Positions 5,147 to 17,088 of a stretch of DNA of 20,000 bases are shown here, piece by piece. The first letter of the stretch is position 1, and each line of letters starts with the position of its first letter. A program made the position numbers and the translations under genes. The notes under the pieces are model-generated. The model saw only the letters and a program-made list of their open reading frames with translations, was not told where the DNA came from and ran no database searches. This DNA is from an uncultured virus (IMG/VR IMGVR_UViG_3300044635_001663) (taxonomy: Duplodnaviria > Heunggongvirae > Uroviricota > Caudoviricetes): positions 106,337 to 126,336 of the IMG/VR virus record IMGVR_UViG_3300044635_001663. One strand, written 5' to 3'.

Positions 5147-6613
5147 ATGTCAAAAGAACAAATGATACTCTGCGATCCATCCGCAGAAAGAGCCGTATTA
5201 GCGATTCTGTGCCAATATGGTCGAGAATATTACTATGAAGTAGCCGATATCTTGTCGGAGGAAACATTTTATATAGACAGCAATATAGTTCTGTATAAAT
5301 GTATTAAGAATGTTTTTGAAAAGCAGGAAGTACAAAAACTAGACATAGCATCAATATACTCTGCTGCTAAGAGTCTAGATTTGGACTTTATCTTAAATAA
5401 AAAAGAAGAAACTCAGCATCTAAAAGCTATACTAGATTTTCCAGTTAATGCTGCAAATCTTAATTCTTTTACTAGTAAAATTACTAAACTGTCCATTGCT
5501 CGTAAGCTTTATAAAAAGCTTGACGAAGTAAAGAAGGGCTTATTAGACGTAAATGGGTCGGAATCTATATCAAAAATTCTAGGTATAGCCGAAGACCCTA
5601 TTCTCGGTTTTGCTTCATCTCTTAGCGATGGAGATAATAGGCCGGAACTAATTCATCAAAATATTGATGATTATATGGATAATCTGAAAAACAATCCTAT
5701 AGATCAGGTTGGTATATCCACAGGTTTTCCTGCATATGACTTTGCTATTGGTGGAGGTTTGCGTCGTAGCACCATTAATGTTATCGCTGCAAGACCTAAG
5801 ACAGGAAAAACATTATTGTCAGATAATATGGGTAGAAATATTGCTAAACTAGGTATACCAGTTTTAAACATGGATACCGAAATGACAAAAAATGACCATA
5901 TTCATAGATTACTAGCAATGATGACGGAAATAGATATATCAAAAATCGAAACAGGAAAATTTAATGAATCTCCAAACCTAAATACAAAAATAGAAAAAGC
6001 TATCTCTGAACTTAAAAGTACTCCAATCTATCACAAGTCTATTGCTGGGAAATCTTTCGATGAGCAAATGAGTATTATGAGAAGATGGATTGTTCAAGAG
6101 GTCGGACTGAATGACGATGGGTCTGCCAAGCCGTGTGTCATATTTTATGATTATCTGAAACTAATGGATACTCAGGGCATGTCTCAGGATATGAAAGAAT
6201 ATCAGGTTTTGGGATTCATGATGACATCTCTGCATAATTTTGCTACCAAATATCAGATTCCTATTGTAGCTTTTGTTCAGTTAAATAGGGATGGTATTAC
6301 GAAAGAAAGCACGGATACCGCGAGCGGATCAGATCGTATTATCTGGTTATGTAGTAATTTTACTATCTTCAAGCGGAAATCTGAAGAAGAGATGGCGGAA
6401 GATGGTCCCGATAATGGTAATAGGAAATTATTGCCACTAGTGAGTAGGCACGGAGGAGGATTGGACGATAACGATTACATTAATTGTTATATGAAGGGAT
6501 GGTGTGCAAAAATTACAGAAGGTAAAACAAGATTGGAGTTAGTCAATGGAAACGGCAGCAACGATGGATTCACCATACAAGAATCAAACTCAGAAGAAAT
6601 TCCGTTCAATTGA
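5147..6613 (+). CDS. dnaB: Replicative DNA helicase DnaB (true start possibly ATG 5162)
   Basis: N-terminal AERAVL...LSEETFY, TGFPAYD..IGGGL, Walker A ARPKTGKT, TEM, DYLKLM, QLNR. Confidence 0.93.
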   Translation: MSKEQMILCDPSAERAVLAILCQYGREYYYEVADILSEETFYIDSNIVLYKCIKNVFEKQEVQKLDIASIYSAAKSLDLDFILNKKEETQHLKAILDFPVNAANLNSFTSKITKLSIARKLYKKLDEVKKGLLDVNGSESISKILGIAEDPILGFASSLSDGDNRPELIHQNIDDYMDNLKNNPIDQVGISTGFPAYDFAIGGGLRRSTINVIAARPKTGKTLLSDNMGRNIAKLGIPVLNMDTEMTKNDHIHRLLAMMTEIDISKIETGKFNESPNLNTKIEKAISELKSTPIYHKSIAGKSFDEQMSIMRRWIVQEVGLNDDGSAKPCVIFYDYLKLMDTQGMSQDMKEYQVLGFMMTSLHNFATKYQIPIVAFVQLNRDGITKESTDTASGSDRIIWLCSNFTIFKRKSEEEMAEDGPDNGNRKLLPLVSRHGGGLDDNDYINCYMKGWCAKITEGKTRLELVNGNGSNDGFTIQESNSEEIPFN

Positions 6614-7718
6614 TCAGCAGCAACTCAAAGTAATTTGTGATGCTGCCTGTGATAAAATTACGGACCTATTTCATTATTTTAATTTAGAGTATCGTGAGAA
6701 CTCTAAGTTTTATAGTATGTGTTGTCCTATTCATAAGGGAGACAACCCGTCTGCTCTAAATATATATCATATAGGAGATTCTTATAGAGGTAACTGGAAA
6801 TGCAGAACTCATCAATGTGAAAAAATATTCAAAGGGTCTATTATTGGATTTATTAGAGGTATTATATCTCAACAAAAATATGATTGGCAAGAAGAAGGGG
6901 ATGATATAGCTTCGTTTAATGAAGCATTAGAATTTATACAAAAATTTGTCAACATAGATGCTGCTCATCTTTCTGTCGATCCTACTGTCAAAGATAAAAA
7001 TATGTTCGTGGCTAATATGTCTATTGTTAGCAAAACATCAAAAAATACATCACATCAATATCCAACTAGAGAATCTGTAAGAAATCTCTTAAATATTCCT
7101 AGTCCATATTTTTTACAAAGAGGATTTTCAGGTGAAATTTTAGACAAATATGATGTGGGAGACTGTACTGTTGTTGGAAAAGAAATGAATAATAGAGCAG
7201 TGGTTCCTATTTATGATACGACACATCAACATATGGTTGGGTGCTCTGGAAGAAGCGTATGCGACAAATGCGACTCATGCGGAGGACACCACAATGCCGA
7301 TATAAAGTGTGAAATAGGTAGGACATTCAGTAAATGGAGACATAGCAAGGGGTTTGCTACACAAACTTCATTATATAATTTATGGTATGCTAAAGAATAT
7401 GTTCAAAAAACAGGCTCTATTATCATAGTGGAGAGTCCTGGTAATGTTTGGAAATTAGAAATGGCTGGAATTCATAATGCTGTTGCTATTTATGGATCTT
7501 CGATGACAGATAAACAAAAAATGTTATTGGATATTTCTGGTGCTATGAATATATATTTATTATTGGATAACGACGAAGCCGGACATAGCGGCAGAAAAGT
7601 AATAGAAAGTAAATGTCATAAAACATATAATATATATAATATACATATCGATACAAACGACGTAGCCGATATGAGTGTGGAACAAATTCAGGAAGTTATA
7701 GGAAAACAAATACAATGA
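6546..7718 (+). CDS. dnaG: DnaG-type DNA primase (zinc-binding plus Toprim domains)
   Basis: CPIHKGDNPS...WKCRTHQC zinc domain, YFLQRG, RAVVPI..VGCSGR, Toprim IIIVE and LDNDEAG; GGAG 7 nt before ATG 6546. Confidence 0.9.
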   Translation: METAATMDSPYKNQTQKKFRSIDQQQLKVICDAACDKITDLFHYFNLEYRENSKFYSMCCPIHKGDNPSALNIYHIGDSYRGNWKCRTHQCEKIFKGSIIGFIRGIISQQKYDWQEEGDDIASFNEALEFIQKFVNIDAAHLSVDPTVKDKNMFVANMSIVSKTSKNTSHQYPTRESVRNLLNIPSPYFLQRGFSGEILDKYDVGDCTVVGKEMNNRAVVPIYDTTHQHMVGCSGRSVCDKCDSCGGHHNADIKCEIGRTFSKWRHSKGFATQTSLYNLWYAKEYVQKTGSIIIVESPGNVWKLEMAGIHNAVAIYGSSMTDKQKMLLDISGAMNIYLLLDNDEAGHSGRKVIESKCHKTYNIYNIHIDTNDVADMSVEQIQEVIGKQIQ

Positions 7719-8449
7719 CAAAAATTATAGGTTTTTCAGGTAAAAAACAATCTGGCAAAAGCAGCTGTGCTAATTTTTTATACGCTAATTTTTTAGCAAA
7801 TACGAATGCCTTTACTAAGGTAATTATGAATAACTTCGGACAAATAGAAGTTATTAAACCAGATAATTCTCAACATATTGTTGACGTATTTGATTATTAT
7901 CATCTTCGACCAAATATTGATACTTATATTTTAGATGTTATACAAAAATTGTCTGGATCAATTAAAGTCTATAGTTTTGCAGATATTCTGAAAAAACAAA
8001 TATGTATCGACATACTAGGATTAACATACGAACAGTGTTACGGCACAGATGAACAAAAAAATACAACGACCGATATGAGCTTAGACGGTCAGTCTCTAAC
8101 AGCTAGAGAAGTTATGCAAATTGTCGGCACAGACTTTTTTAGAAAAATCAAAGTAGATATTTGGCCAGAATCAACAATAAGAAAAATTTTAATGGACCAA
8201 CCACAAATTGCTCTTATTAACGACTGTAGATTTCCTAATGAAGTAGCTGCAATCAAAAATCATAATGGCTGTGTTATCAGGCTAACAAGAAATATTTATG
8301 GAGATGACTCATCTCATGAATCAGAAAATATTTTGAATCAAGATAGATACGATTGGAATAATTTTAATTATATATTGGATAATAGTAATCTAGATATACT
8401 TCAACAGTCAGAACAATTATTTCCAATTTTTATAGAAAACATAAAATGA
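7715..8449 (+). CDS. Deoxynucleoside monophosphate kinase (T4 gp1-like)
   Basis: IIGFSGKKQSGKS P-loop, SFADILK, TAREVMQIVGTD, DCRFPNE. Confidence 0.88.
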   Translation: MTKIIGFSGKKQSGKSSCANFLYANFLANTNAFTKVIMNNFGQIEVIKPDNSQHIVDVFDYYHLRPNIDTYILDVIQKLSGSIKVYSFADILKKQICIDILGLTYEQCYGTDEQKNTTTDMSLDGQSLTAREVMQIVGTDFFRKIKVDIWPESTIRKILMDQPQIALINDCRFPNEVAAIKNHNGCVIRLTRNIYGDDSSHESENILNQDRYDWNNFNYILDNSNLDILQQSEQLFPIFIENIK

Positions 8450-9486
8450 TTATTACTTATTTTCGTAGTTCATCTTTTAATGCTCACTCTATGTGTGAGC
8501 AACAATATTTTGGAGAATATGTATTAGGATGGAGAGGTCTTTCAGGTAAAAAAGCAGACAAGGGAACAATTGTACATAAAATTTTAGAGATTCTGGCTTT
8601 TATTAAAAAAGCAGAACAAAATAACCAGATCACTATTGTAGATGATGTTGTTGGAGAATTAGATGTTAATAACTACGATTTAGATACTATTATTGAACAG
8701 GTATATGATTATTATACAAACACAAACCAACATCATAAATGGATGCCAGTAGATAAAAAGGATTGTCGAGAATGGGTATATAAAACCTTAAATTATAATA
8801 ATGGGATGTTTGATCCTAGAAAAAGACATATAGTTGAAGCAGAACAGCACTTTGATTTTGAAATAAAAAAACCATGGAGCAAATACAGTTTTACTATAGA
8901 CGATCAAGAAATATCCGGTCATTTGGCACTAAAAGGTACTATTGATCTTATAACTAAGGTAAATGATAATACATTAGAAATTATAGACTGGAAAACAGGT
9001 AAAAGATTAAATTGGGCTACTGGTAAAACTAAAGAACAAGAAGACTTAGAAAAAGATCCACAATTAAGAATTTATCATTATGCTTTAACTCGCTTATATC
9101 CAGAAATTGATCATGTAATAGTTTCTATTAATTTTATTAACGATGGTGGGGCTTTCTCTATTTGTTTTGATAAAAAGGACTTAATAGCGACAGAAGACAT
9201 GTTGAGACAAAAATTTGAAATCATAAAAAAATCAAAGAAGCCAAAATTGACAAAATCGTGGATGTGTAGTAAGCTGTGTCATTTGGGAAAAACCACGTTC
9301 GAAAATACCGCAGTCCCCCCACTTGTTGAATACAGAGATGGTCAAATATCTCCTAAAGATAAGTATATGACTAAATGTGAACAAATCAAACACGATATTG
9401 AATTATATGATATTCAATTTGTTACACAGCAGTATAAACATCCTAATCATAATTTTGGCTTTTATAAACCACCGGGACAAACATGA
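8446..9486 (+). CDS. RecB/AddB/Cas4-type PD-(D/E)XK exonuclease
   Basis: SSFN...C, GTIVHKILE, AEQHF, KGTIDLI, IIDWKTG, QLRIY and C-terminal cysteines. Confidence 0.88.
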   Translation: MIITYFRSSSFNAHSMCEQQYFGEYVLGWRGLSGKKADKGTIVHKILEILAFIKKAEQNNQITIVDDVVGELDVNNYDLDTIIEQVYDYYTNTNQHHKWMPVDKKDCREWVYKTLNYNNGMFDPRKRHIVEAEQHFDFEIKKPWSKYSFTIDDQEISGHLALKGTIDLITKVNDNTLEIIDWKTGKRLNWATGKTKEQEDLEKDPQLRIYHYALTRLYPEIDHVIVSINFINDGGAFSICFDKKDLIATEDMLRQKFEIIKKSKKPKLTKSWMCSKLCHLGKTTFENTAVPPLVEYRDGQISPKDKYMTKCEQIKHDIELYDIQFVTQQYKHPNHNFGFYKPPGQT

Positions 9487-11357
9487 AAACATATATTCCT
9501 CTACATGTACACAGTCATTATTCCTTACTTGATGGTTTGTCAAAACCTGATCAAATAGCGGATAGGTGTGCAGAAATAGGTGTTGATACTTGTGCAATCA
9601 CTGATCACGGGACTATATCCGGTACTGTAAAGTTTCACAGCATAATGAAAAAGAAGGGCATTAAACCTATTCTTGGTTGTGAATTATATATTTGTGATCA
9701 ATCTCCATCTACTAAAACCCCAGAAAACAGATCTTTAGCTCATTTATTAGTATTGGCAAAAAACTATCAAGGATGGAAAACCCTAATAAAAATAGTTTCT
9801 GAATCAAACAATCCTGATTATTATTACTATAAACCTAGATTAGATATTCAAACATTAGGATCTCTGTTAGACGGTAATCTTATAGGCATATCTGGACACC
9901 TAGGATCGACTGTAGCAGATTGTATTGTTCGTGACGACAAAATAAAAGATGATTGGGAAACAGGGGCCATAAAACATATTGATCTATTACAGAATGCCTT
10001 TGGAAAAGATAATTTTTTCCTAGAAACACAATTAATGGATTCTCAGAATCTATTAATACAAAAACATCTCACAGATTGTGTTAGAAAAATAGCTCGTCAA
10101 AAAAATATTAAAGCAATTTGTACACCCGATGCTCACTACTGTAGAAAAGAAGATGCTGTTGACCAAAGGATTCTGTTGTGCAATAATTTAAAAACTACGT
10201 TACCAGCTATAAATACAAAAATTCTAAATAAAGACGATGTCCCTATGGGCACCTTCTTTCTTTCTGATAATTATCATATATTAGATCATCAAGAAATGTC
10301 TGCTTTACATTTTGAAGAAGAATTAGACAATACTCACTATATAAATAGTTTATGCGAAAACTATGATATAGTACACAAGCCAACTTTACCAGATTTTAAA
10401 TGTCCAAACCAAATATCTGAAGACGAGTATCTTAGAGAATTATGTAGGCATGGATGGAAAAATAAAAATCTCAATAGTCTGGAAGATAATGTCAAAAATA
10501 ATTATGTTGATCGTATAAAATACGAATTAGAGGTTCTACAGGGGGCTGGTCTGTCGAGTTATTTTCTTATCGTACAGGATATAGTTAATCATGTAAAACA
10601 AAATGACTGGCTTCCCGGCCCAGGAAGAGGAAGTGCGGCTGGATGTCTAGTATCATATTTAATAGGCATCACTAGTATAGATCCTATGCAATATGGACTA
10701 CTGTTTGATAGATTTTATAATGCTGGTCGAAATACTAAAGATCATATTTCTATGCCAGATATTGATATTGACGTACCTATCAACAAGAGAGAAGAAATTA
10801 TTCAATATATTAAAAATCAGTATGGTTCTAGCAAAGTGTCTCAAATGATTACTTTTAATACTATGAAAGGCAGAGGAGCTTTAAAAGACGTATTAAGAGT
10901 TTATGGTAATATTAGTTTTGATGAAATGAATATGATTACTAAAAATATACCAGATGAAGCAAAAATTGCGGACGAACTACAAGAAATGAAAGACGAGTAT
11001 GGGGAATCTTCGATTATTCGTTGGGCATTAGAAAATAATTCAGAAGGTCTTGAGCAGTGGTGCAAGATCGACGATGAAGGAAACTTGTCTGGCCCTCTGG
11101 CGAAGCGTTTCGAGCAGGCTATTAGGCTGGAAGGGACCAAAACCAACCAATCTAAACATGCGGCTGGTATCGCTATCAGTTCACAGGCTCTTGCCGAACT
11201 CTGTCCTATGGTTTATGATAGTAGGAACGAACAGACCATAGCCGGTATGGAGATGCAAGACCTAGAAAGTTTAGGTATTGTAAAATTCGATATTCTAGGT
11301 ATCGCTATGCTAGATAAGATTATGTGCATAAAAGATTTATTATCTCATCAGGTCTGA
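9483..11357 (+). CDS. dnaE: DNA polymerase III alpha subunit, N-terminal half (PHP, palm, thumb)
   Basis: HVHSHYSLLDG, TDHG, KPILGCE, DAHY (PHP); GPGRGSAAG, MPDIDID, KHAAG, KFDILG (all three catalytic Asp). Confidence 0.95.
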   Translation: MKTYIPLHVHSHYSLLDGLSKPDQIADRCAEIGVDTCAITDHGTISGTVKFHSIMKKKGIKPILGCELYICDQSPSTKTPENRSLAHLLVLAKNYQGWKTLIKIVSESNNPDYYYYKPRLDIQTLGSLLDGNLIGISGHLGSTVADCIVRDDKIKDDWETGAIKHIDLLQNAFGKDNFFLETQLMDSQNLLIQKHLTDCVRKIARQKNIKAICTPDAHYCRKEDAVDQRILLCNNLKTTLPAINTKILNKDDVPMGTFFLSDNYHILDHQEMSALHFEEELDNTHYINSLCENYDIVHKPTLPDFKCPNQISEDEYLRELCRHGWKNKNLNSLEDNVKNNYVDRIKYELEVLQGAGLSSYFLIVQDIVNHVKQNDWLPGPGRGSAAGCLVSYLIGITSIDPMQYGLLFDRFYNAGRNTKDHISMPDIDIDVPINKREEIIQYIKNQYGSSKVSQMITFNTMKGRGALKDVLRVYGNISFDEMNMITKNIPDEAKIADELQEMKDEYGESSIIRWALENNSEGLEQWCKIDDEGNLSGPLAKRFEQAIRLEGTKTNQSKHAAGIAISSQALAELCPMVYDSRNEQTIAGMEMQDLESLGIVKFDILGIAMLDKIMCIKDLLSHQV

Positions 11358-11381
11358 TTCCAAAAAGAAAGGGTTCTAAAT

Positions 11382-11561
11382 ATGTTAGAAAAACAGTTTA
11401 TTGATATTGAGGTAAATTCTGTATTCGTATTAGATGATTTAGAATATACAAAGATAGGAGAAGAAAGACTTAGTTGTTGCAAGGTGCTTAATGCCATTCG
11501 TAACGACACCAAAGAAAAAGTCATGATTCTTCCATTACAGCGAGTAAAGGTTTCAGCATGA
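11382..11561 (+). CDS. 59-aa hypothetical protein missed by the ORF track (MLEKQFIDIEVNSVFVLDDLEYTKIGEERLSCCKVLNAIRNDTKEKVMILPLQRVKVSA)
   Basis: ATG 11382 preceded by AAAGGG; TGA 11559-11561 forms an ATGA overlap with the exonuclease start; the ORF fills the gap. Confidence 0.75.
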   Translation: MLEKQFIDIEVNSVFVLDDLEYTKIGEERLSCCKVLNAIRNDTKEKVMILPLQRVKVSA

Positions 11562-12250
11562 AATTTAGTAACAAAATATGTATCTTTGATCTAGAAACAG
11601 ACGGAGTGAATCCTAATGTTTGTAGTGCAGTACAAATAGCTGCTGTGATAGTGGATCCAATAAAATTAGAAATAGTTAAGGATTCCGAATTTAATATAAT
11701 GCTTAAGCCAGAAAGCTTAGAACTCAATCCTAATCACGAATATGATAATGATATTCTAAATTTTCATGCCAAAGTTAGGAATTGTTCCAGAGATGATATT
11801 TTATGTTCGTGGAAAGAAGCTATGCCACAAAAACAAGCATGGTCCTTATTCTGTGGATATTTAGATAAGTATCATTCGAGAACTAGTAAGAAAAATGAAT
11901 TTTCTGCTCCTATAGCTTCTGGATATAATATCAACAGATTTGATCTAAAAATAGTTAATCGTATGGCTCAAAAATTTAATACAGTCAATAAAGAAAACGA
12001 TAGTAATATTTTTTACCCACGAGACGTAATAGATATTATGAATCTATTATATTATTGGTTTATGTATTTAGAAGATGTCAAATCAATATCATTAGATAAT
12101 GTTAGAGATTATTTTTCTATATCTAAAGATAATGCTCACGACGCTCTAAAAGATGTAAAAGATTGTGCTGATATCTTACTTAGATTTTTAAAGTTACATA
12201 AGAATTTATCACAAAAAATTAAATTTAAGGGTGCCTTTGGAGATGTTTGA
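11558..12250 (+). CDS. dnaQ: DEDDh 3'-5' exonuclease (DnaQ/epsilon-like)
   Basis: ExoI FDLETDG, ExoII GYNINRFD, ExoIII AHDALKDV. Confidence 0.88.
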   Translation: MKFSNKICIFDLETDGVNPNVCSAVQIAAVIVDPIKLEIVKDSEFNIMLKPESLELNPNHEYDNDILNFHAKVRNCSRDDILCSWKEAMPQKQAWSLFCGYLDKYHSRTSKKNEFSAPIASGYNINRFDLKIVNRMAQKFNTVNKENDSNIFYPRDVIDIMNLLYYWFMYLEDVKSISLDNVRDYFSISKDNAHDALKDVKDCADILLRFLKLHKNLSQKIKFKGAFGDV

Positions 12251-13793
12251 AGCAGATATATCTAAAATTGATTTGGCTTGTTCCAAAACCTGGAATTTAA
12301 TATCAAATGGAAATACTAAGGGGTGTTTTCAGTTGGAGTCCAGGCTAGGAAGGTCTTTGGCTAAAAAACTAAAACCATCAAATATAGAAGAATTAGCTGC
12401 ACTAATTTCTATTATGCGACCAGGATGTTTGGAGGCATATAGAGACGGAAAAAGCGTAACCAGTCACTATATCGACAAAAAGAATGGTGTCGAAGATATC
12501 GATTATTTTCATGAGTGTTTGGAGCCTATTCTGAATACTACATATGGTGAAATGGTATATCAGGAACAAGCTATGCAAATAGCTAAAGATATTGCTGGTT
12601 TCGATTTGCAAGAAGCAGACAATTTGCGTAAAGCTATTGGTAAAAAGAAACCAGAAGAAATGGCAAAACTTAAAATCAAATTTATAGACGGTTGTGCTAA
12701 TAGAAAATTATTAAATGCAGAACAAGCTGATCAGGTTTTCGGATGGATCGAAAAAAGTCAAAGATATTCTTTTAATAAATCGCACGCTATTAGTTATGCT
12801 ATGAATTGTTACTTATCAGCATATGCTAAAGCTCACTATCCTGTTTATTTTTTTACGGCTTACCTAAGATTTGCCAAAGATAAAATAGATCCTCAACAAG
12901 AAATTAAAGAACTGGTACAAAATGCTATAGAGATGGGAATTAGTATATGTAATCCAGATGTAAGAATGCTAAACGATCTTATAGAACTTAAAAACCAACA
13001 TATATATTTCGGACTAACAGATATTAAAGGTTTTGGTCAATCAGCATTTAAAAAACTAAAACACCTAATACATACAGACAATCTAGATCTTGCTAAATTA
13101 AAATGGACAGAATTTTTGATAGATGTTTTGTATGAATTGAATTCCACAGCTAGTAAAGCACTAATTCAATCCGGAGCATTGGATTATTTGAAGTTACACA
13201 GAAACAAAATGCTGTTGGATTACAGTATGTTATTAGAATTAACACCCAAAGAGGTCGCTCTACTTAAGAGTATATCTTTGAACACAGATGATCTATATAC
13301 TAGTCTGTGTCAATTAAAAGAAAAAATAACTTTGAATAAACGTAAAGAAATAGTCAATAATTTATGTAAAACAATGAAAAATCCTCCATTTTCCATTGAA
13401 GACTCTATAGAATGGCTTGTTGATACTGAGAACATGTTGTTGGGTTATTCTATCTCCTGTTCTAAAATAGACATGTATGATATTCACATGGTAAGTCATT
13501 CTTGTAGAGACATTAAGCATAATAAATGCAGCAACAATAATTTGATGGTGGCCGGTGAGATAGAGAATATCAATATAGTCAAAACAAAGAAGGGCAAAAA
13601 TGCTGGAGCCGAGATGGCTTTTCTATCCATAAATGATGGTACTGCCTGTTTGGATTCTGTGGTATATTTTCCAGAAACTTTTAGACAATACCGTAACCAA
13701 TTATTTGAAGGTAATATTATTATCATCAAGGGCAATATATCTAAAAATAAGGATTCGTTTGTTGCTGAAAAGACGTTTTTAGCAAAAACTTGA
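12231..13793 (+). CDS. dnaE: DNA polymerase III alpha subunit, C-terminal half (fingers, HhH, OB); start may be ATG 12243
   Basis: GCFQLES, RPG, YQEQAM, ADNLRKAIGKKK, YSFNKSHA..Y, GLTDIKGFG, LIQSGALD, E..LLG, OB fold with KTKKG..MAF...D. Confidence 0.95.
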   Translation: MPLEMFEADISKIDLACSKTWNLISNGNTKGCFQLESRLGRSLAKKLKPSNIEELAALISIMRPGCLEAYRDGKSVTSHYIDKKNGVEDIDYFHECLEPILNTTYGEMVYQEQAMQIAKDIAGFDLQEADNLRKAIGKKKPEEMAKLKIKFIDGCANRKLLNAEQADQVFGWIEKSQRYSFNKSHAISYAMNCYLSAYAKAHYPVYFFTAYLRFAKDKIDPQQEIKELVQNAIEMGISICNPDVRMLNDLIELKNQHIYFGLTDIKGFGQSAFKKLKHLIHTDNLDLAKLKWTEFLIDVLYELNSTASKALIQSGALDYLKLHRNKMLLDYSMLLELTPKEVALLKSISLNTDDLYTSLCQLKEKITLNKRKEIVNNLCKTMKNPPFSIEDSIEWLVDTENMLLGYSISCSKIDMYDIHMVSHSCRDIKHNKCSNNNLMVAGEIENINIVKTKKGKNAGAEMAFLSINDGTACLDSVVYFPETFRQYRNQLFEGNIIIIKGNISKNKDSFVAEKTFLAKT

Positions 13794-13818
13794 CATGCTG
13801 GTACACCACCAATACTAT
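13790..13818 (+). promoter_or_regulatory. Sigma70-type promoter for ssb
   Basis: TTGACA at 13790-13795, 17-nt spacer, TACTAT at 13813-13818. Confidence 0.75.
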
Positions 13819-13865
13819 ACTGTGCGTTTGCGTGATTTTTAACTTTTTACAAAGGAAATTTGAAT

Positions 13866-14234
13866 ATGAATATTGTATTACTTAGAGGTAATCTAACTCG
13901 TGATCCTGAGATTAGGAAAATCGAAGGCAGATCAAAGCCTGTGTCTGTGGTAAATTTCACCATTGCTGTATCTCGTGAATATACCAAGGCTTCTGGCGAA
14001 AAGGATAAGATTACCACTTTTGTTAATTGCGAAGCTTGGGATTCTGGAGCAGAGATTATAGCGGAATCCTTTAGGAAGGGTGACTTGGTAATGGTAGAAG
14101 GATCTCTTAGAAATGACTCGTGGGAAAAGGATGGGGTCAAGCATAGTACTCTACGTATTAGAGTAAACAACTTTTCTAAGATCACCAAGCTGTCTAAGTC
14201 TCAGTCAGTTGATACAGAGGCTGTGGCTTTCTAA
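13866..14234 (+). CDS. ssb: Single-stranded DNA-binding protein (bacterial OB type)
   Basis: MNIVLLRGNLTRDPEIR, FTIAVSR, KGDLVMVEGSL...SWE; AAAGGA RBS upstream of ATG 13866 (the track starts at TTG 13860). Confidence 0.95.
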   Translation: MNIVLLRGNLTRDPEIRKIEGRSKPVSVVNFTIAVSREYTKASGEKDKITTFVNCEAWDSGAEIIAESFRKGDLVMVEGSLRNDSWEKDGVKHSTLRIRVNNFSKITKLSKSQSVDTEAVAF

Positions 14235-14258
14235 GTTATCCCATAAACAGATTTAAAG

Positions 14259-14291
14259 ATGGGGCTGTTGAAAAAAGACAGCCCTATTTTT
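14259..14291 (+). terminator. Intrinsic terminator after ssb
   Basis: GGGCTGT (14262-14268) and ACAGCCC (14278-14284) form an inverted repeat followed by TATTTTT. Confidence 0.75.
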
Positions 14292-14309
14292 ATAAACACA
14301 CAAATTTTC

Positions 14310-15989
14310 ATGACTAATCAAAAACATAAAACTAGAATTTTAGTATGTTCAGAATCATCTAAAGTTTCTTCAGGCTTTGGAACATACAATAAAGCCTTGC
14401 TAAAAGGATTATTTGAAAGCAATAAATATGAAATTGCTGAGTTTGCTTCATATGGATTAATAGGGGATAAAGAAAAGTTTAATATCCCATGGAAGTACTA
14501 TCCAAATGCGATAGAAAAAGATGATAAAAGAGAACAGTTATATAATAGCTCTCCCGAAAACCAATTCGGCAAATGGCGTTTTGATAGAGTTGTTTTAGAT
14601 TTTAAGCCGGAAATAGTTATAGACATTAGAGATTATTGGATGTCTGCGTATCAGAGGTTTTCTCCTTTACGCAAATATTTTCATTGGATTCTTATGCCAA
14701 CCATAGATTCATTTCCTCAAAAAGAGGAATGGCTAGATACTTATATCAATGCTAATGCTGTATTTACATATAGTGACTGGGGAGCAGAAGTCCTAAAACA
14801 GCAAACAAGTAATAAGATTAAATATATATCAACAGCATCTCCAGCAGCTAATGCCTCAAGTTATCAGCAGGTTTCACTAGCTCAAAAACAAGAAATAAAG
14901 GGTTCATTAGCTCTATCAAAAGACAATATCGTCATTGGTACTGTAATGAGAAACCAAAAGAGAAAACTTTTCCCTGAATTAATCCAAGCTTTCGAAGCGT
15001 TAGTTGATCGTTTGCGTAATGAACAATCAGAAAAAAGCAATCAAATTATATTATATTTGCACACAAGTTATCCCGATGCTGGATGGGATATGTTTGAGTT
15101 AATCAAGAATAGTAAGGTTTCAAATAAAATATACTTTACATATTGGTGCAGAAGCTGCAACGCTATTTTTGCATCAAATTTAGCTGGCTTTACACAAAAA
15201 TGCTATAAGTGTAAACAAAAGTCTGCCATAATACCGAATGTTGGAAACGCTATAGGAGAAGCGGCATTAGGTAAAATAATGTCAATATTCGATGTATATG
15301 TTCAATATTCTATCTGTGAAGGCTTTGGTATGCCCCAGGTTGAGGCAAGCTACTGTGGGGTTCCTGTTTTAACCGTAAATTATAGCGCAATGGAGGACAT
15401 GATTAAAAAAATCAATGCCCAACCCATTAAGCTCGGATTAAAATTCAAAGAATTGGAAACAGGGGCTATCAGAGTATATCCAGATAAAGATGATACTGTA
15501 GATAAATTATATTCTTTGATCCATAAACCTCAGAATATATTAGCTAAAATAGGTTTTACTAATAAAAATTTAGCAACCAATGAGTACTCCTGGCAGGATA
15601 CTGTTCAGAAGTGGATGGATTATATAGACACTGTTGATACGGATTACTATCGTAGTCGATGGGAAAATATGTCTTATCAACAAATTCCAACTATAAATAT
15701 TAATCCAGAAATAAGAGATAAAACAGTTTATGAACAAATTTATAGTCTACATAATCAATTTAAATCAACAGGACTAGATATGTCTACCTATTGGTTATTA
15801 AAAAACATATATTTTGCACAAAACTCAATGCTGTACGACGGAGCGTCTGTTGTGTCGTACTCTATTAATAATATTATCAAAGATATCAATAGTATTATTA
15901 CTAACTATAATAATGTAGAATATGCTAGATGTAATCCGTCATTGTTAACTAGTGAAGATTTTATAGATTATGCAAACAAAACAACCTAA
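14310..15989 (+). CDS. GT-B (family 4-like) glycosyltransferase with zinc-ribbon insertion
   Basis: SGFG near the N-terminus, FKPEIV, GTVMRNQKRK, EGFGMPQVEA (Ex7E) ..CGVPV; CRSC...CYKC insert; start moved to ATG 14310, downstream of the terminator. Confidence 0.88.
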   Translation: MTNQKHKTRILVCSESSKVSSGFGTYNKALLKGLFESNKYEIAEFASYGLIGDKEKFNIPWKYYPNAIEKDDKREQLYNSSPENQFGKWRFDRVVLDFKPEIVIDIRDYWMSAYQRFSPLRKYFHWILMPTIDSFPQKEEWLDTYINANAVFTYSDWGAEVLKQQTSNKIKYISTASPAANASSYQQVSLAQKQEIKGSLALSKDNIVIGTVMRNQKRKLFPELIQAFEALVDRLRNEQSEKSNQIILYLHTSYPDAGWDMFELIKNSKVSNKIYFTYWCRSCNAIFASNLAGFTQKCYKCKQKSAIIPNVGNAIGEAALGKIMSIFDVYVQYSICEGFGMPQVEASYCGVPVLTVNYSAMEDMIKKINAQPIKLGLKFKELETGAIRVYPDKDDTVDKLYSLIHKPQNILAKIGFTNKNLATNEYSWQDTVQKWMDYIDTVDTDYYRSRWENMSYQQIPTININPEIRDKTVYEQIYSLHNQFKSTGLDMSTYWLLKNIYFAQNSMLYDGASVVSYSINNIIKDINSIITNYNNVEYARCNPSLLTSEDFIDYANKTT

Positions 15990-17088
15990 AAATATATTAT
16001 ACATAGCTCCATATAGACAGCATGATGGTTGGGGACTAGCGTCTAGAGATTATCTATTAGCTTTATTAAGCACACACCATAATGTGGTTCCCGTCTCTTT
16101 CTATACTAATAGAGGAGCTAAATGTGTTATAGATAATAAACAAATACTTAATGCGGAAAAACAATCCTATACTTATTATGATTATGTTATACAAAAATCT
16201 ATGCCTCAGTCTTTTGTGTATAATGGAGATTTTGGGAAAAATATAGGATTAACAGTTATAGAAAACAATAGATTCTTTTCCTCCGGAATAGCATCTATTA
16301 ATATTATGGATCAGTTATTAGTCCCGTCTTTAAAAGAAAAAAATGCACTGATAAATTCTGGTGTTCGTATACCAATATCGACTATTTCTCAACCCATCGA
16401 TACTAATCTAATAAAAAATCATTCAAGTAAAGTATTAGATATGGGCTTATCCTCTAATACGTTTAAATTTTATTTTATTGGAGAATATATTCAAAGAAAA
16501 AACATAAAAGATATTATTATTGCTTTTAATTTAGAATTCGATATTAACGAACCAGTAGAACTAATAATAAAAACATCTATGCCGGGATTAACAAGCGAAC
16601 AAGCTAAACAACATATAGAGCAAGATATTGTAAAACTGAAAACACGCTTCAGAATTAAAAATAAATATAAGACAGAAACCATAATTACTAAACGACTATC
16701 AGATTTAGAGATGCAATCATTACACAAAACGTGCGATTGTTTTGTTGCCGTATCCTATGGAGAAGCATTTTGTAGACCAGCGGCAGAAGCGGTTTGTTCT
16801 GGCAACACGGCTATCCTATCAGACGGTATTGGTATCTCAGAAATGTTAGACACTGATGACTTTTATTATGTGCAAAGCTCTGAGCAACCAGTACTCATGG
16901 AAGACACAACATATGTAAATGGTCTAGATTTTTATAATGCAAATGAGACATGGTTTATTCCAAGTATTATGCATTTAAGACAACAAATGAGATCTGCTTT
17001 TAATGATAAAAAAACTGTTTCTGATACTAAATATTTAGAGAGATTCAGTTACAATAATATAGGACAACAAATATGTCAATCAATTTAA
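15970..17088 (+). CDS. GT-B (family 4-like) glycosyltransferase
   Basis: DGWGLASR, FYFIGE..QRKN, CDCFVAVSYGEAFCRPAAEA (Ex7E). Confidence 0.85.
   Translation: MQTKQPKNILYIAPYRQHDGWGLASRDYLLALLSTHHNVVPVSFYTNRGAKCVIDNKQILNAEKQSYTYYDYVIQKSMPQSFVYNGDFGKNIGLTVIENNRFFSSGIASINIMDQLLVPSLKEKNALINSGVRIPISTISQPIDTNLIKNHSSKVLDMGLSSNTFKFYFIGEYIQRKNIKDIIIAFNLEFDINEPVELIIKTSMPGLTSEQAKQHIEQDIVKLKTRFRIKNKYKTETIITKRLSDLEMQSLHKTCDCFVAVSYGEAFCRPAAEAVCSGNTAILSDGIGISEMLDTDDFYYVQSSEQPVLMEDTTYVNGLDFYNANETWFIPSIMHLRQQMRSAFNDKKTVSDTKYLERFSYNNIGQQICQSI

Follow-up and report, generated by a model that had tools for sequence, protein, structure and literature searches.

A family-C DNA polymerase gene divided at the palm/fingers junction around a DEDDh exonuclease gene in aquatic phages

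Gene layout at the split dnaE locus

The window (the whole stretch of DNA that was analyzed, 20,000 nt) belongs to a metagenome-assembled viral record of an uncultured lake phage. Four plus-strand ORFs lie in a row in it (Table 1): the N-terminal part of a Pol III alpha gene (dnaE-N), a 59-aa ORF, a DEDDh exonuclease gene and the remaining part of the Pol III alpha gene (dnaE-C). They form part of a replication module with the gene order RecA, DnaB, primase, dNMP kinase, nuclease, split dnaE and SSB, and the nuclease and SSB flanks are syntenic in relatives with split and with fused dnaE alike.

Table 1 Features at and around the split dnaE. Window coordinates of the helicase and primase are the coordinates of locus L103 minus 1336
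Feature	Position	Strand	Details
DnaB-like helicase	5147-6613	+	Pfam DnaB_C 1.6e-27; replication module shared with split dnaE
Toprim primase	6546-7718	+	Pfam Toprim_4 2e-9; replication module shared with split dnaE
PD-(D/E)XK nuclease gene, upstream flank	8446..9486	+	Pfam PDDEXK_1 9.8e-17
dnaE-N, PHP/palm/thumb of Pol III alpha	9483..11357	+	624 aa, stop TGA; Pfam PHP and DNA_pol3_alpha
59-aa ORF	11382..11561	+	12 orthologues at equivalent position; all-beta AF2 model
DEDDh (DnaQ-like) 3'-5' exonuclease gene	11558..12250	+	230 aa; Pfam RNase_T, PHROG 192
dnaE-C, fingers/HhH/OB of Pol III alpha	12231..13793	+	520 aa from GTG 12231, or 516 aa from ATG 12243
SSB gene, downstream flank	13860..14234	+	Pfam SSB 1.4e-25

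A preliminary description of this DNA had reported a split dnaE with a nested exonuclease, about 870 nt separating the halves. The four-ORF layout, the Pfam domains and the related loci (see below) bear this out. The gap measures 873 nt (11358-12230) and holds the 59-aa ORF and an intact exonuclease gene. There is no single continuous DnaE polypeptide, as dnaE-N stops at 11355-11357 and two other genes precede dnaE-C. The end of the 59-aa ORF overlaps the start of the exonuclease gene by 4 nt (ATGA), and the 3' end of the latter overlaps the start of dnaE-C. Because the gaps are short or the stop and start codons overlap, the four genes probably share a transcript and are translationally coupled. 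The length of 520 aa given earlier for the C-half holds for the ORF but less well for the protein. ATG 12243 is the more likely start, since it gives an 8-nt overlap with the exonuclease stop (TGA, 12248-12250) and agrees with the start of the L005 orthologue.

Domains and catalytic residues

The Pfam domains are partitioned exactly between the two DnaE ORFs. In dnaE-N, PHP was found at residues 7-183 (2.6e-37, 129 bits) and the complete DNA_pol3_alpha model (positions 1-260 of 260) at residues 315-606 (1.5e-73, 248 bits). This half thus has the PHP domain and the palm with three catalytic aspartates of a DnaE-type family-C polymerase, as stated in the preliminary description. The aspartates are D426 and D428 within PDIDID (425-430) and D603 within KFDILG (601-606); the two motifs align to MPDIDTD and KMDFLG of the Taq enzyme, and the residues are kept in 160, 161 and 161 of 161 clade members, respectively. 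The stop codon follows KFDILG after 18 aa (about 20 aa in the earlier estimate).

The fingers, HhH and OB regions of a DnaE-type polymerase are found in dnaE-C, with matches to DNA_pol3_finger (model positions 19-165 of 166; 8.6e-48, 162 bits) and HHH_6 (31.5 bits, cut-off 25.6) and a marginal OB match (27.7 bits, cut-off 27). YSFNKSH, which we take, following the preliminary description, to be the site of the cyanobacterial split intein, is unbroken at residues 179-185. Only 13 residues follow the OB fold, so that the C-terminal tau-binding region is absent; no clamp-binding motif was seen in dnaE-C.

The 230-aa ORF matches Pfam RNase_T (37.4 bits, cut-off 24) and PHROG 192, 'DNA polymerase exonuclease subunit' (9e-19). 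It carries the DEDDh motifs DxE (Exo I; D11, E13), D (Exo II; D129) and Hx4D (Exo III; H194, D199), and all five residues are invariant in 41/41 aligned exonuclease homologues, among which a C-terminal KxKF..AF tail is also conserved. As dnaE-N has all nine metal-ligand positions of the PHP domain, it is conceivable that the PHP domain could proofread alone, leaving the DEDDh enzyme another task. In many relatives these PHP positions are degenerate, while the DEDDh residues are invariant.

Position of the cut

Alignment of the dnaE-N product extends to residue 625 of Taq alpha and, with its own residue 613, to residue 565 of E. coli alpha; the dnaE-C product begins to align at residue 642 of Taq alpha and covers 585-933 of E. 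coli alpha, starting with its residue 9. The cut therefore falls at about 576/577 in E. coli alpha and 639/640 in Taq alpha. When the halves were compared with fused relatives, they abutted. In L014, the match to residues 3-623 of the N-half ends at nt 2795 and that to residues 3-504 of the C-half begins at nt 2799. In P0146, residues 4-623 of the N-half align to 3-613 and residues 6-513 of the C-half to 618-1141. From the LDK to the TW motif there are 36 residues in the window (N tail plus C head) versus 34 in P0146. Because the fused relatives are colinear across the cut, nothing is lost or duplicated there, in agreement with the earlier claim, and the alignments place a clean cut at the palm/fingers junction.

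Distribution and gene order in relatives

The preliminary description had suggested that the arrangement may occur in other metagenomic phages and had proposed a database search for the breakpoint and gene order. When this search was carried out, the N-half ended within 20 aa of the cut site in 141 of the best 150 representatives of 50%-identity clusters. The best 120 homologues of near-equal length are all 610-645 aa long and contain only PHP and PF07733. A fused query retrieved 80 IMG/VR loci, of which 62 are split and contain both halves, 12 contain just a closed N-half, four are fused and two are cut by the end of the locus. The exonuclease gene lies between the halves in all 62 of these split loci and in 9/9 other loci, i.e. 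in 71/71 split viral loci holding both halves. The split layout is thus not rare; it prevails within a very large clade of phages from lakes and oceans.

The insert between the halves spans 0.74 to 6.9 kb. In the L105-L109 lineage, metabolic genes separate the halves by 6.85 kb, so that neither adjacency nor tight co-translation is a requirement. Inserts in other lineages also hold methyltransferase, cytidylyltransferase or formyltransferase genes; the nested gene set is not a fixed unit.

In fused relatives the exonuclease gene is located upstream of dnaE. The order is [small gene-exonuclease]-dnaE in the fused form and dnaE-N-[small gene-exonuclease]-dnaE-C in the split form, and the sole difference is a swap of two adjacent blocks, which offers a concrete and testable pathway between them. 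In the dnaE-N tree, rooted with seven distant outgroup sequences, fused forms occupy three separate places inside the split clade, and monophyly of the split members was rejected (delta lnL 112.7, p-AU 0.0076). On this tree, changes between fused and split dnaE occurred at least three times, a pattern that recombination could mimic. The cut is old, and most of the clade has it. A full-text literature search found no paper on this layout. New here are the range of the insert, the subclade-specific 59-aa gene, the upstream exonuclease gene in fused relatives and the state changes.

Integrity of the locus and separate translation of the halves

As the window comes from a metagenome-assembled record, the split might be an assembly artefact or a decaying pseudogene, but we consider this scarcely credible. 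Two contigs from independent lake-water runs not flagged as the source, X14 (2262 nt, covering 10506-12767) and X17 (1621 nt, 10903-12523), bridge the whole insert with 0 differences and 0 indels. The identical sequence is found in three other IMG/VR records and in 20 DNA runs, eight of which are not flagged as a possible source (none of the runs listed with the sequence is an RNA run), and the cut is common to nearly all cluster representatives mentioned above. Decay is contradicted by the median pN/pS values (dnaE-N 0.21/0.73, exonuclease 0.22/0.71, dnaE-C 0.26/0.71). All three genes are under purifying selection, with dS saturated and the dN/dS values being rough, upper-bound style estimates. 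Among the objections raised in the preliminary description, misassembly and relaxed selection do not hold.

It is also highly improbable that the halves are rejoined to a single-chain DnaE through ribosomal bypass, trans-splicing, an intron or a short split intein that escaped recognition. Cyanobacteria and marine 'fractured genes' provide known cases of split inteins in dnaE (available text of PMC2677866), and other relatives of the phage carry dnaE inteins at different sites. However, neither half matched Hint, Intein_splicing or LAGLIDADG (Pfam, E<=0.01), which agrees with the earlier statement that intein motifs are missing from both ends, while the same search detected the split intein of the relative L065 (Hint 2e-7, Intein_splicing 3.9e-5). 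The junction lengths of the window and P0146 leave no space for intein parts, and the gap is filled by two complete, conserved and selected genes in other frames, the insert growing to its full 6.9 kb in L105. No homing endonuclease was found between the halves, the nested genes being the DEDDh exonuclease and the 59-aa ORF, which has no endonuclease family match. In an Rfam search of 9000-14500 (E<=1) no group I or II intron was found, only two weak sRNA matches, both past 14264. The dnaE-N stop codon varies among six orthologues (TGA, TAA, TAG), which argues against recoding. Because the cut is clean, conserved and maintained by purifying selection, shows no intein or intron and always has the exonuclease gene between the halves, no reading fits other than that of two separately translated DnaE pieces.

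Proposed two-piece polymerase

We consider it probable that these genes encode a two-piece family-C replicase which assembles into a non-covalent complex, with the exonuclease as a proofreader in trans and no splicing; both assembly and activity are inferred. The replicative polymerase of the phage would be a DnaE-type enzyme whose gene is cut into two independently translated genes. The dnaE-N product would supply the PHP domain, the three catalytic aspartates and the thumb, and the dnaE-C product the fingers, the HhH/beta-binding region and the OB fold. A working complex of separate pieces is the most likely form of the enzyme because the pieces are separate and there seems to be nothing to splice them. 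Their non-covalent contact would use the surface that lies within the molecule in single-chain DnaE, neither protein nor RNA splicing taking part, and the exonuclease would act like E. coli epsilon. Binding of the halves to each other or to the exonuclease is suggested by colinearity with single-chain DnaE and by co-inheritance. For a putative contact of the exonuclease with the PHP domain, the relevant observations are the linkage of the genes and the conserved KxKF..AF tail.

Pfam scans of 214 ORFs of the 126-kb record, the remainder being covered separately, detected neither PolA nor PolB and no clamp or clamp loader; the split DnaE appears to be the only recognizable DNA polymerase of the record. 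The record is 91% complete (CheckV), so a further polymerase gene may lie in the missing part.

Alternatively, the two products could have separate roles or meet just transiently on DNA. It would fit with the halves lying up to 6.85 kb apart, with an N-half lacking a C-half within 5 kb on some fragments and with another split Pol III alpha whose genes are far apart in jumbo phages (available text of Iyer et al. 2021, PMC7824862). The halves nevertheless co-occur in all 71 loci long enough to show both, are under similar constraint and have no other recognized polymerase beside them in the record. In solved Pol III alpha structures the fingers contribute to the active site, which also counts against separate roles, and we regard these as unlikely. 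Replication by the host Pol III, with the split products as repair or accessory factors, is less likely still: the failure to find a clamp, clamp loader or tau-binding C-terminal domain and the incompleteness of the record would suit it, but the genes lie inside a complete replication module (RecA to SSB), this module is syntenic across the clade and the catalytic residues are invariant.

The two-piece replicase could be taken further in a joint reading that we find rather doubtful, in which the exonuclease docks across the palm/fingers seam as a structural bridge, the two-piece state is ancestral and at least three re-fusions expelled the exonuclease cassette upstream. It would explain why the exonuclease gene is located within the cut in all 71 split loci yet outside dnaE in fused genomes; if true, the polymerase cannot assemble without its proofreader.

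Comparison with known systems

To our knowledge, family-C polymerases have been treated as single-chain enzymes, with the only natural splits being repaired by inteins. In PolC, which is a single chain, the exonuclease forms a domain within PHP. The window resembles this family-C enzyme (Geobacillus 3F2B, matched by alignment), with a proofreading exonuclease 'inside' the polymerase, at the level of gene order only, its exonuclease being a separate gene between palm and fingers. Single-chain DnaE (E. coli 2HNH and 5FKU, T. aquaticus 2HPI and the fused DnaE of other phages) has the same domain order (PHP, palm, thumb, fingers, HhH, OB), and its catalytic aspartates and a separate DEDDh exonuclease gene (epsilon) are shared with the window. 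It differs in being uncut, with no exonuclease gene within; the window, for its part, is without the tau-binding region, and the phage record yielded no gene for a clamp or clamp loader.

Among split systems, the cyanobacterial dnaE (Wu et al. 1998 and Caspi et al. 2003, as cited in PMC2677866) likewise consists of two genes. However, according to the available text, it is cut at another site and an intein part on each half ligates the chain, whereas the window has no detectable intein part. In the fractured genes of marine metagenomes (Dassa et al. 2009, PMC2677866; available text), a replication gene, dnaE included, is in two pieces with another gene nested, as in the window, but there the break carries split inteins and the nested gene encodes a homing endonuclease. 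Here there is neither, and a DEDDh exonuclease gene and a small ORF are nested instead. The relative L065 is a true example of a fractured gene, its dnaE being broken at another site by a Hint domain followed by a NUMOD3/DUF559 endonuclease gene and the remaining dnaE.

Two further comparisons concern intein-free phage polymerases. In PhiKZ, the B-family polymerase consists of two separately encoded proteins, DNAP-N and DNAP-C, in a stable 1:1 complex (available text of the Basu et al. 2026 preprint, PMC13648687). This is a phage replicative polymerase made of two intein-free polypeptides, and such a complex is the mechanism proposed here; it belongs to family B, not family C, hence differs in fold and cut site from the predicted enzyme of the window, and is biochemically characterized. 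For T4-like jumbo phages an intein-free two-protein Pol III alpha catalytic module was predicted (Iyer et al. 2021, PMC7824862). As described in the available text, it is minimal, without PHP and other domains, and its genes are far apart and accompanied by a family-B polymerase, while the window has the full-length architecture, a single cut and no other recognized polymerase.

Most members of this very large phage clade have a clean, intein-free cut at the palm/fingers hinge. If the pieces assemble, the hinge would be a natural site for protein engineering in Pol III alpha, and the system would be a model for gene fission and re-fusion without loss of an essential function and would show a minimal Pol III core working with no clamp, clamp loader or tau-binding domain of its own.

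The 59-aa protein

The 59-aa ORF has no Pfam or PHROG match. Its 12 orthologues share invariant F6, F15, C32, C33, N37 and V55 and were found solely in the subclade of the window; other split clades have an unrelated family of about 75 aa or no small gene. The idea that the protein is a general component of the polymerase was therefore dropped. Theta is a small helical protein, and a theta/HOT-like Pol III core subunit was rejected as the AF2 model is all-beta and not helical. The model (pLDDT 94.9) has five strands, and its sole match in a fold search, a weak one, is domain I of eIF5A/EF-P.

Gene layout and domain partition

The DnaE architecture was found with Pfam to be partitioned exactly between the first and the last of four ORFs (see the table), all of them on the + strand and in agreement with the preliminary description. 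That description had placed the end of dnaE-N about 20 aa after the KFDILG motif; the motif occupies residues 601-606, so the protein ends 18 residues further on. Its statements that YSFNKSH is uninterrupted (dnaE-C residues 179-185) and that the DEDDh exonuclease is intact were likewise borne out, with D11, E13, D129, H194 and D199 invariant in 41 aligned homologues. The three palm aspartates are kept in 160, 161 and 161 of 161 clade sequences.

Positions and content of the four ORFs of the split polymerase region
Feature	Position	Strand	Product and domains
dnaE-N	9483..11357	+	ORF, 624 aa; Pfam PHP and complete DNA_pol3_alpha model
59-aa ORF	11382..11561	+	ORF
DEDDh exonuclease gene	11558..12250	+	ORF, 230 aa; RNase_T above cut-off; PHROG 192 'DNA polymerase exonuclease subunit'
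dnaE-C	12231..13793	+	520 aa from GTG; DNA_pol3_finger (from model position 19), HHH_6, OB fold

The genes are tightly packed, with a gap of 24 nt between dnaE-N and the 59-aa ORF and an overlap of 4 nt between the latter and the exonuclease gene. The dnaE-C start is probably the ATG at 12243 rather than the GTG at 12231, judging from its 8-nt overlap with the exonuclease stop (20 nt from the GTG) and its match to the start in the related locus L005. The dnaE-C genes of four close relatives (L007:6047-6140, L008:8676-8770, L009:8745-8830 and L010:5984-6060) carry about 25-30 extra N-terminal residues with a conserved YPCGCSF motif, an extension that the window and L005 do not have. Exonuclease residues 218-230 (window 12210-12247) form a C-terminal tail, KxKF(K/E)x(A/S)F, in which F223 and F227 are nearly invariant in both split and fused clades; this tail might serve to dock the exonuclease onto the polymerase or onto a clamp.

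Cut site and colinearity with single-chain DnaE

When aligned with E. coli alpha, dnaE-N residue 613 corresponds to residue 565 and dnaE-C residue 9 to residue 585, which places the cut at about 576/577 (about 639/640 in Taq alpha numbering). In L014, a gut-phage gene fused across this palm/fingers site, the dnaE-N match stops at nt 2795 and the dnaE-C match begins at nt 2799. The closest fused protein, P0146 (57 % identity to the N-half and 43 % to the C-half), aligns through its residues 3-613 with dnaE-N 4-623 and through 618-1141 with dnaE-C 6-513. The span from LDK to TW is 36 residues summed over both window pieces vs 34 in P0146. Thus, the claim that nothing was lost or duplicated at the break was upheld by colinearity with both fused forms, and nothing was added either.

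Another dnaE in pieces is that of Bacillus phage vB_BceM_WH1 (LC597490.1; L015:2911-7109), annotated as three CDS (gp235, gp236 and gp237) with gaps of about 725 and 400 nt at positions that differ from the window's cut. Our guess is that these gaps are introns.

Splicing, assembly and read-through

Neither protein or RNA splicing into a single DnaE chain nor an assembly artefact accounts for the interruption. Neither half had a Hint or intein match at E ≤ 0.01 (Pfam), in agreement with the intein-free reading, and the same search picked up Hint and Intein_splicing in the relative L065 as a positive control. An Rfam scan found no intron, and the stop codon of dnaE-N varies between orthologues (TGA, TAA or TAG). 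Identical DNA is present in three further IMG/VR records, and 20 DNA runs from lake water contain it as well (12 of these are possibly source runs), with no RNA run among the runs listed for the window sequence. Misassembly, also raised in the preliminary description, was countered by two contigs (2262 nt and 1621 nt) from runs not flagged as source, with 0 differences and 0 indels, both of which cover the dnaE-N end, both inner genes and the dnaE-C start. The read/contig comparison also yielded nine 'joints', each from one contig of other depth with sides of 21-42 nt and 90 % likeness. None of the nine connects 11357 to 12231; they were rejected as evidence of a fused form and read as patches of similarity from relatives' contigs. 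Finally, the reading frame runs from the dnaE-N TGA into the 59-aa ORF without a further stop (window 11355-11384). Read-through joining these two products was rejected and the frame relation is probably accidental, since it is conserved in neither L005 nor L042, two related loci.

Spread of the split arrangement

A nucleotide search of GenBank phages gave no match, and the best protein matches among them had at most 35 % identity. The 120 best near-length homologues of dnaE-N, found in JGI, ENA, Logan, NCBI and Tara Oceans data on contigs that reach 217 kb, are all 610-645 aa long and contain PHP and PF07733 only. From the 50 %-identity clusters, the 150 best representatives were examined; 141 of them terminate no more than 20 residues from the counterpart of position 624, so the breakpoint does recur in other genomes, as had been supposed. 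The others are fused (4), fused across the palm/fingers site and broken near dnaE-C residue 183 (2), extended by longer tails (2) or truncated (1).

The gene order recurs as well. When 80 IMG/VR loci were fetched using an alignment of fused proteins, 62 were split with both halves present, all 62 with the exonuclease gene in between; the same holds for 9/9 of a separate set of window-related loci. Twelve further loci have a closed dnaE-N with dnaE-C beyond the locus, four are fused at the palm/fingers site and two are cut by a contig end. The short fragments L087 and L080 lack dnaE-C. A scan of IMG/VR with the fused protein P0146 as query gave no matches.

Content of the insert

The inserts of 56 distinct split loci were compared. 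Their gene sets differ, consisting of the exonuclease gene only or of a small ORF and the exonuclease gene, with further additions of a 161-166-aa ORF, a TylF-like methyltransferase, a cytidylyltransferase-like gene or a formyltransferase. The halves lie 6.85 kb apart in loci L105-L109 (L105:2806-9681), where a block of glyoxalase-like, aldehyde dehydrogenase, DDAH-like, class-III aminotransferase, UDP-glucose-dehydrogenase-like and saccharopine-dehydrogenase-like genes is found and the exonuclease gene remains immediately upstream of dnaE-C.

The 59-aa family (12 sequences; invariant F6, F15, C32, C33, N37 and V55) was found in the window's subclade only. A homologue search with the protein returned 3 clusters, and the ESM Atlas held viral hypothetical clusters only. 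The protein is confidently modelled (pLDDT 94.9) as a small barrel of five strands, with weak resemblance to eIF5A/EF-P domain I (best Foldseek match, E 8.5e-3). A theta-like identity was rejected on this predicted fold. The predicted complex of the exonuclease and the 59-aa protein scored 0.14 (mark, 0.32). In other clades, the same place is taken by a family of about 75 aa with the motif LSIC.IND...YQVH...FS.LY..EA..F.EI.RK (L084:4941-5192, L065:6058-6309, L039:8913-9143 and 18 more). Its gene is always directly upstream of the exonuclease gene or downstream of dnaE-N, in split and fused genomes alike. Homology between the two families was rejected (hhalign probability 0.5 %).

Evolution of the fused and split states

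The fused DnaE proteins of phages share 42-57 % identity with dnaE-N, which puts them nearer to it than certain of the split relatives (L011, for example, at 45 %). The fused loci L016/L060, L084 and L065 share their flanks with the split ones (PD-(D/E)XK upstream, SSB and glycosyltransferase downstream) and have the exonuclease gene upstream of dnaE, preceded in L084 and L065 by the gene of the 75-aa family. Fused and split forms therefore differ in the order of two adjacent blocks.

Phylogenetic trees were drawn with FastTree (168 dnaE-N rows, with 7 bacterial or unassigned DnaE sequences as the root; one truncated representative excluded) and with IQ-TREE (PMSF; 69 rows, comprising 45 split, 17 fused at the palm/fingers site and 7 outgroups, with 97 split and 2 odd-tailed rows excluded). 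Split forms occupy the deepest phage branches of either tree, and fused forms turn up at three separate points; the junction linkers of these three fused groups are unlike in length and sequence. Constraining all split rows to group together lowers the log-likelihood by 112.7 units (p-AU 0.0076). From these comparisons, the most parsimonious reading would be a single ancient fission followed by three or more re-fusions. We give true re-fusion about an even chance; the same tree pattern could result if fused and split phages had recombined or if the root were wrong. Duplication of the [small gene-exo-dnaE-N] block and subsequent loss of the redundant copies is a possible route from one order to the other that needs no non-functional intermediate.

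The dnaE of L065 (L065:6995-11681) is fused at the palm/fingers site but broken further on, past the fingers domain, where alignment with the window dnaE-C is interrupted at about residue 183, in the YSFNKSH region. An 894-aa piece with a Hint/intein N-part at its end is followed by the gene for a 295-aa endonuclease, NUMOD3/DUF559 (Vsr-like), and then by a 373-aa HhH-OB piece, which makes it a 'fractured gene' of the type described by Dassa (2009).

Selection

Nei-Gojobori estimates were made for 11 genomes of the window's subclade (55 pairs; 45 for dnaE-C). Median pN was 0.21 for dnaE-N, 0.22 for the exonuclease, 0.26 for dnaE-C and 0.40 for the 59-aa ORF, and median pS was about 0.7 in all four genes. 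The median dN/dS values (pairs with finite dS) were 0.11, 0.13, 0.16 and 0.35 in the same order, and are rough because synonymous sites are saturated. With that reserve, both halves and the exonuclease gene are under purifying selection, not the relaxed selection for which a ratio near 1 had been named as the sign.

Replication module and proposed enzyme

The window is the terminal part of a 126,336-bp viral record (91 % complete by CheckV), with the gene order RecA, DnaB, primase, dNMP kinase, PD-(D/E)XK nuclease, dnaE-N, 59-aa ORF, exonuclease, dnaE-C, SSB and glycosyltransferases. No family-A or family-B polymerase, beta clamp or clamp loader was found with Pfam among 214 further ORFs of at least 60 aa in this 91 %-complete record. 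The dnaE-C product stops 13 residues past the OB fold and so lacks the tau-binding end that cellular alpha has. A simple pattern search, which is a weak test, gave no clamp-binding motif in dnaE-C. Promoter and terminator counts equalled the shuffled expectation, with no terminator-like site within the insert.

We consider it likely that dnaE-N and dnaE-C are translated as separate chains and join non-covalently as a Pol III alpha-like enzyme, as first proposed, for which the DEDDh protein would proofread in trans. All four genes would probably be on one transcript with translationally coupled starts. The nine positions that we take to be PHP metal ligands are all present in the window dnaE-N (9504-10139; residues 8-218), and many of the 161 clade sequences have other residues at such positions (e.g. 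H8 replaced in 65/161 and D17 in 61/161), which suggests that PHP activity may be lineage-specific. The DEDDh protein is favoured as the general proofreader since its active-site residues are invariant while the PHP ligands degenerate in many relatives.

Split dnaE genes known so far depend on split inteins (PMC2677866, PMC3919608). For T4-like jumbo phages, PMC7824862 predicts a different, minimal two-gene Pol III alpha, and PMC13648687 reports an intein-free two-piece family-B polymerase of PhiKZ as a stable complex. The PhiKZ enzyme is thus of family B with its complex demonstrated, whereas the window's is a DnaE known here from its genes. A full-text literature search of main articles found no paper on this DnaE cut.

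Elsewhere in the record, L099:14075-15073 (59075-60073 of the whole record, outside the window) encodes an actin-fold protein with a full-length Pfam Volactin match (1.3e-63), next to genes for a RuvB-like ATPase, a trypsin-like protease and a thioredoxin. Sugar-modification genes are unusually numerous at window 14259-17088 and at about 62-102 kb of the record, including several GT1/GT2 glycosyltransferases, RgpF, DegT aminotransferases, FdtA, a pyruvyl transferase, a cytidylyltransferase and many methyltransferases. One glycosyltransferase lies downstream of SSB in all relatives.
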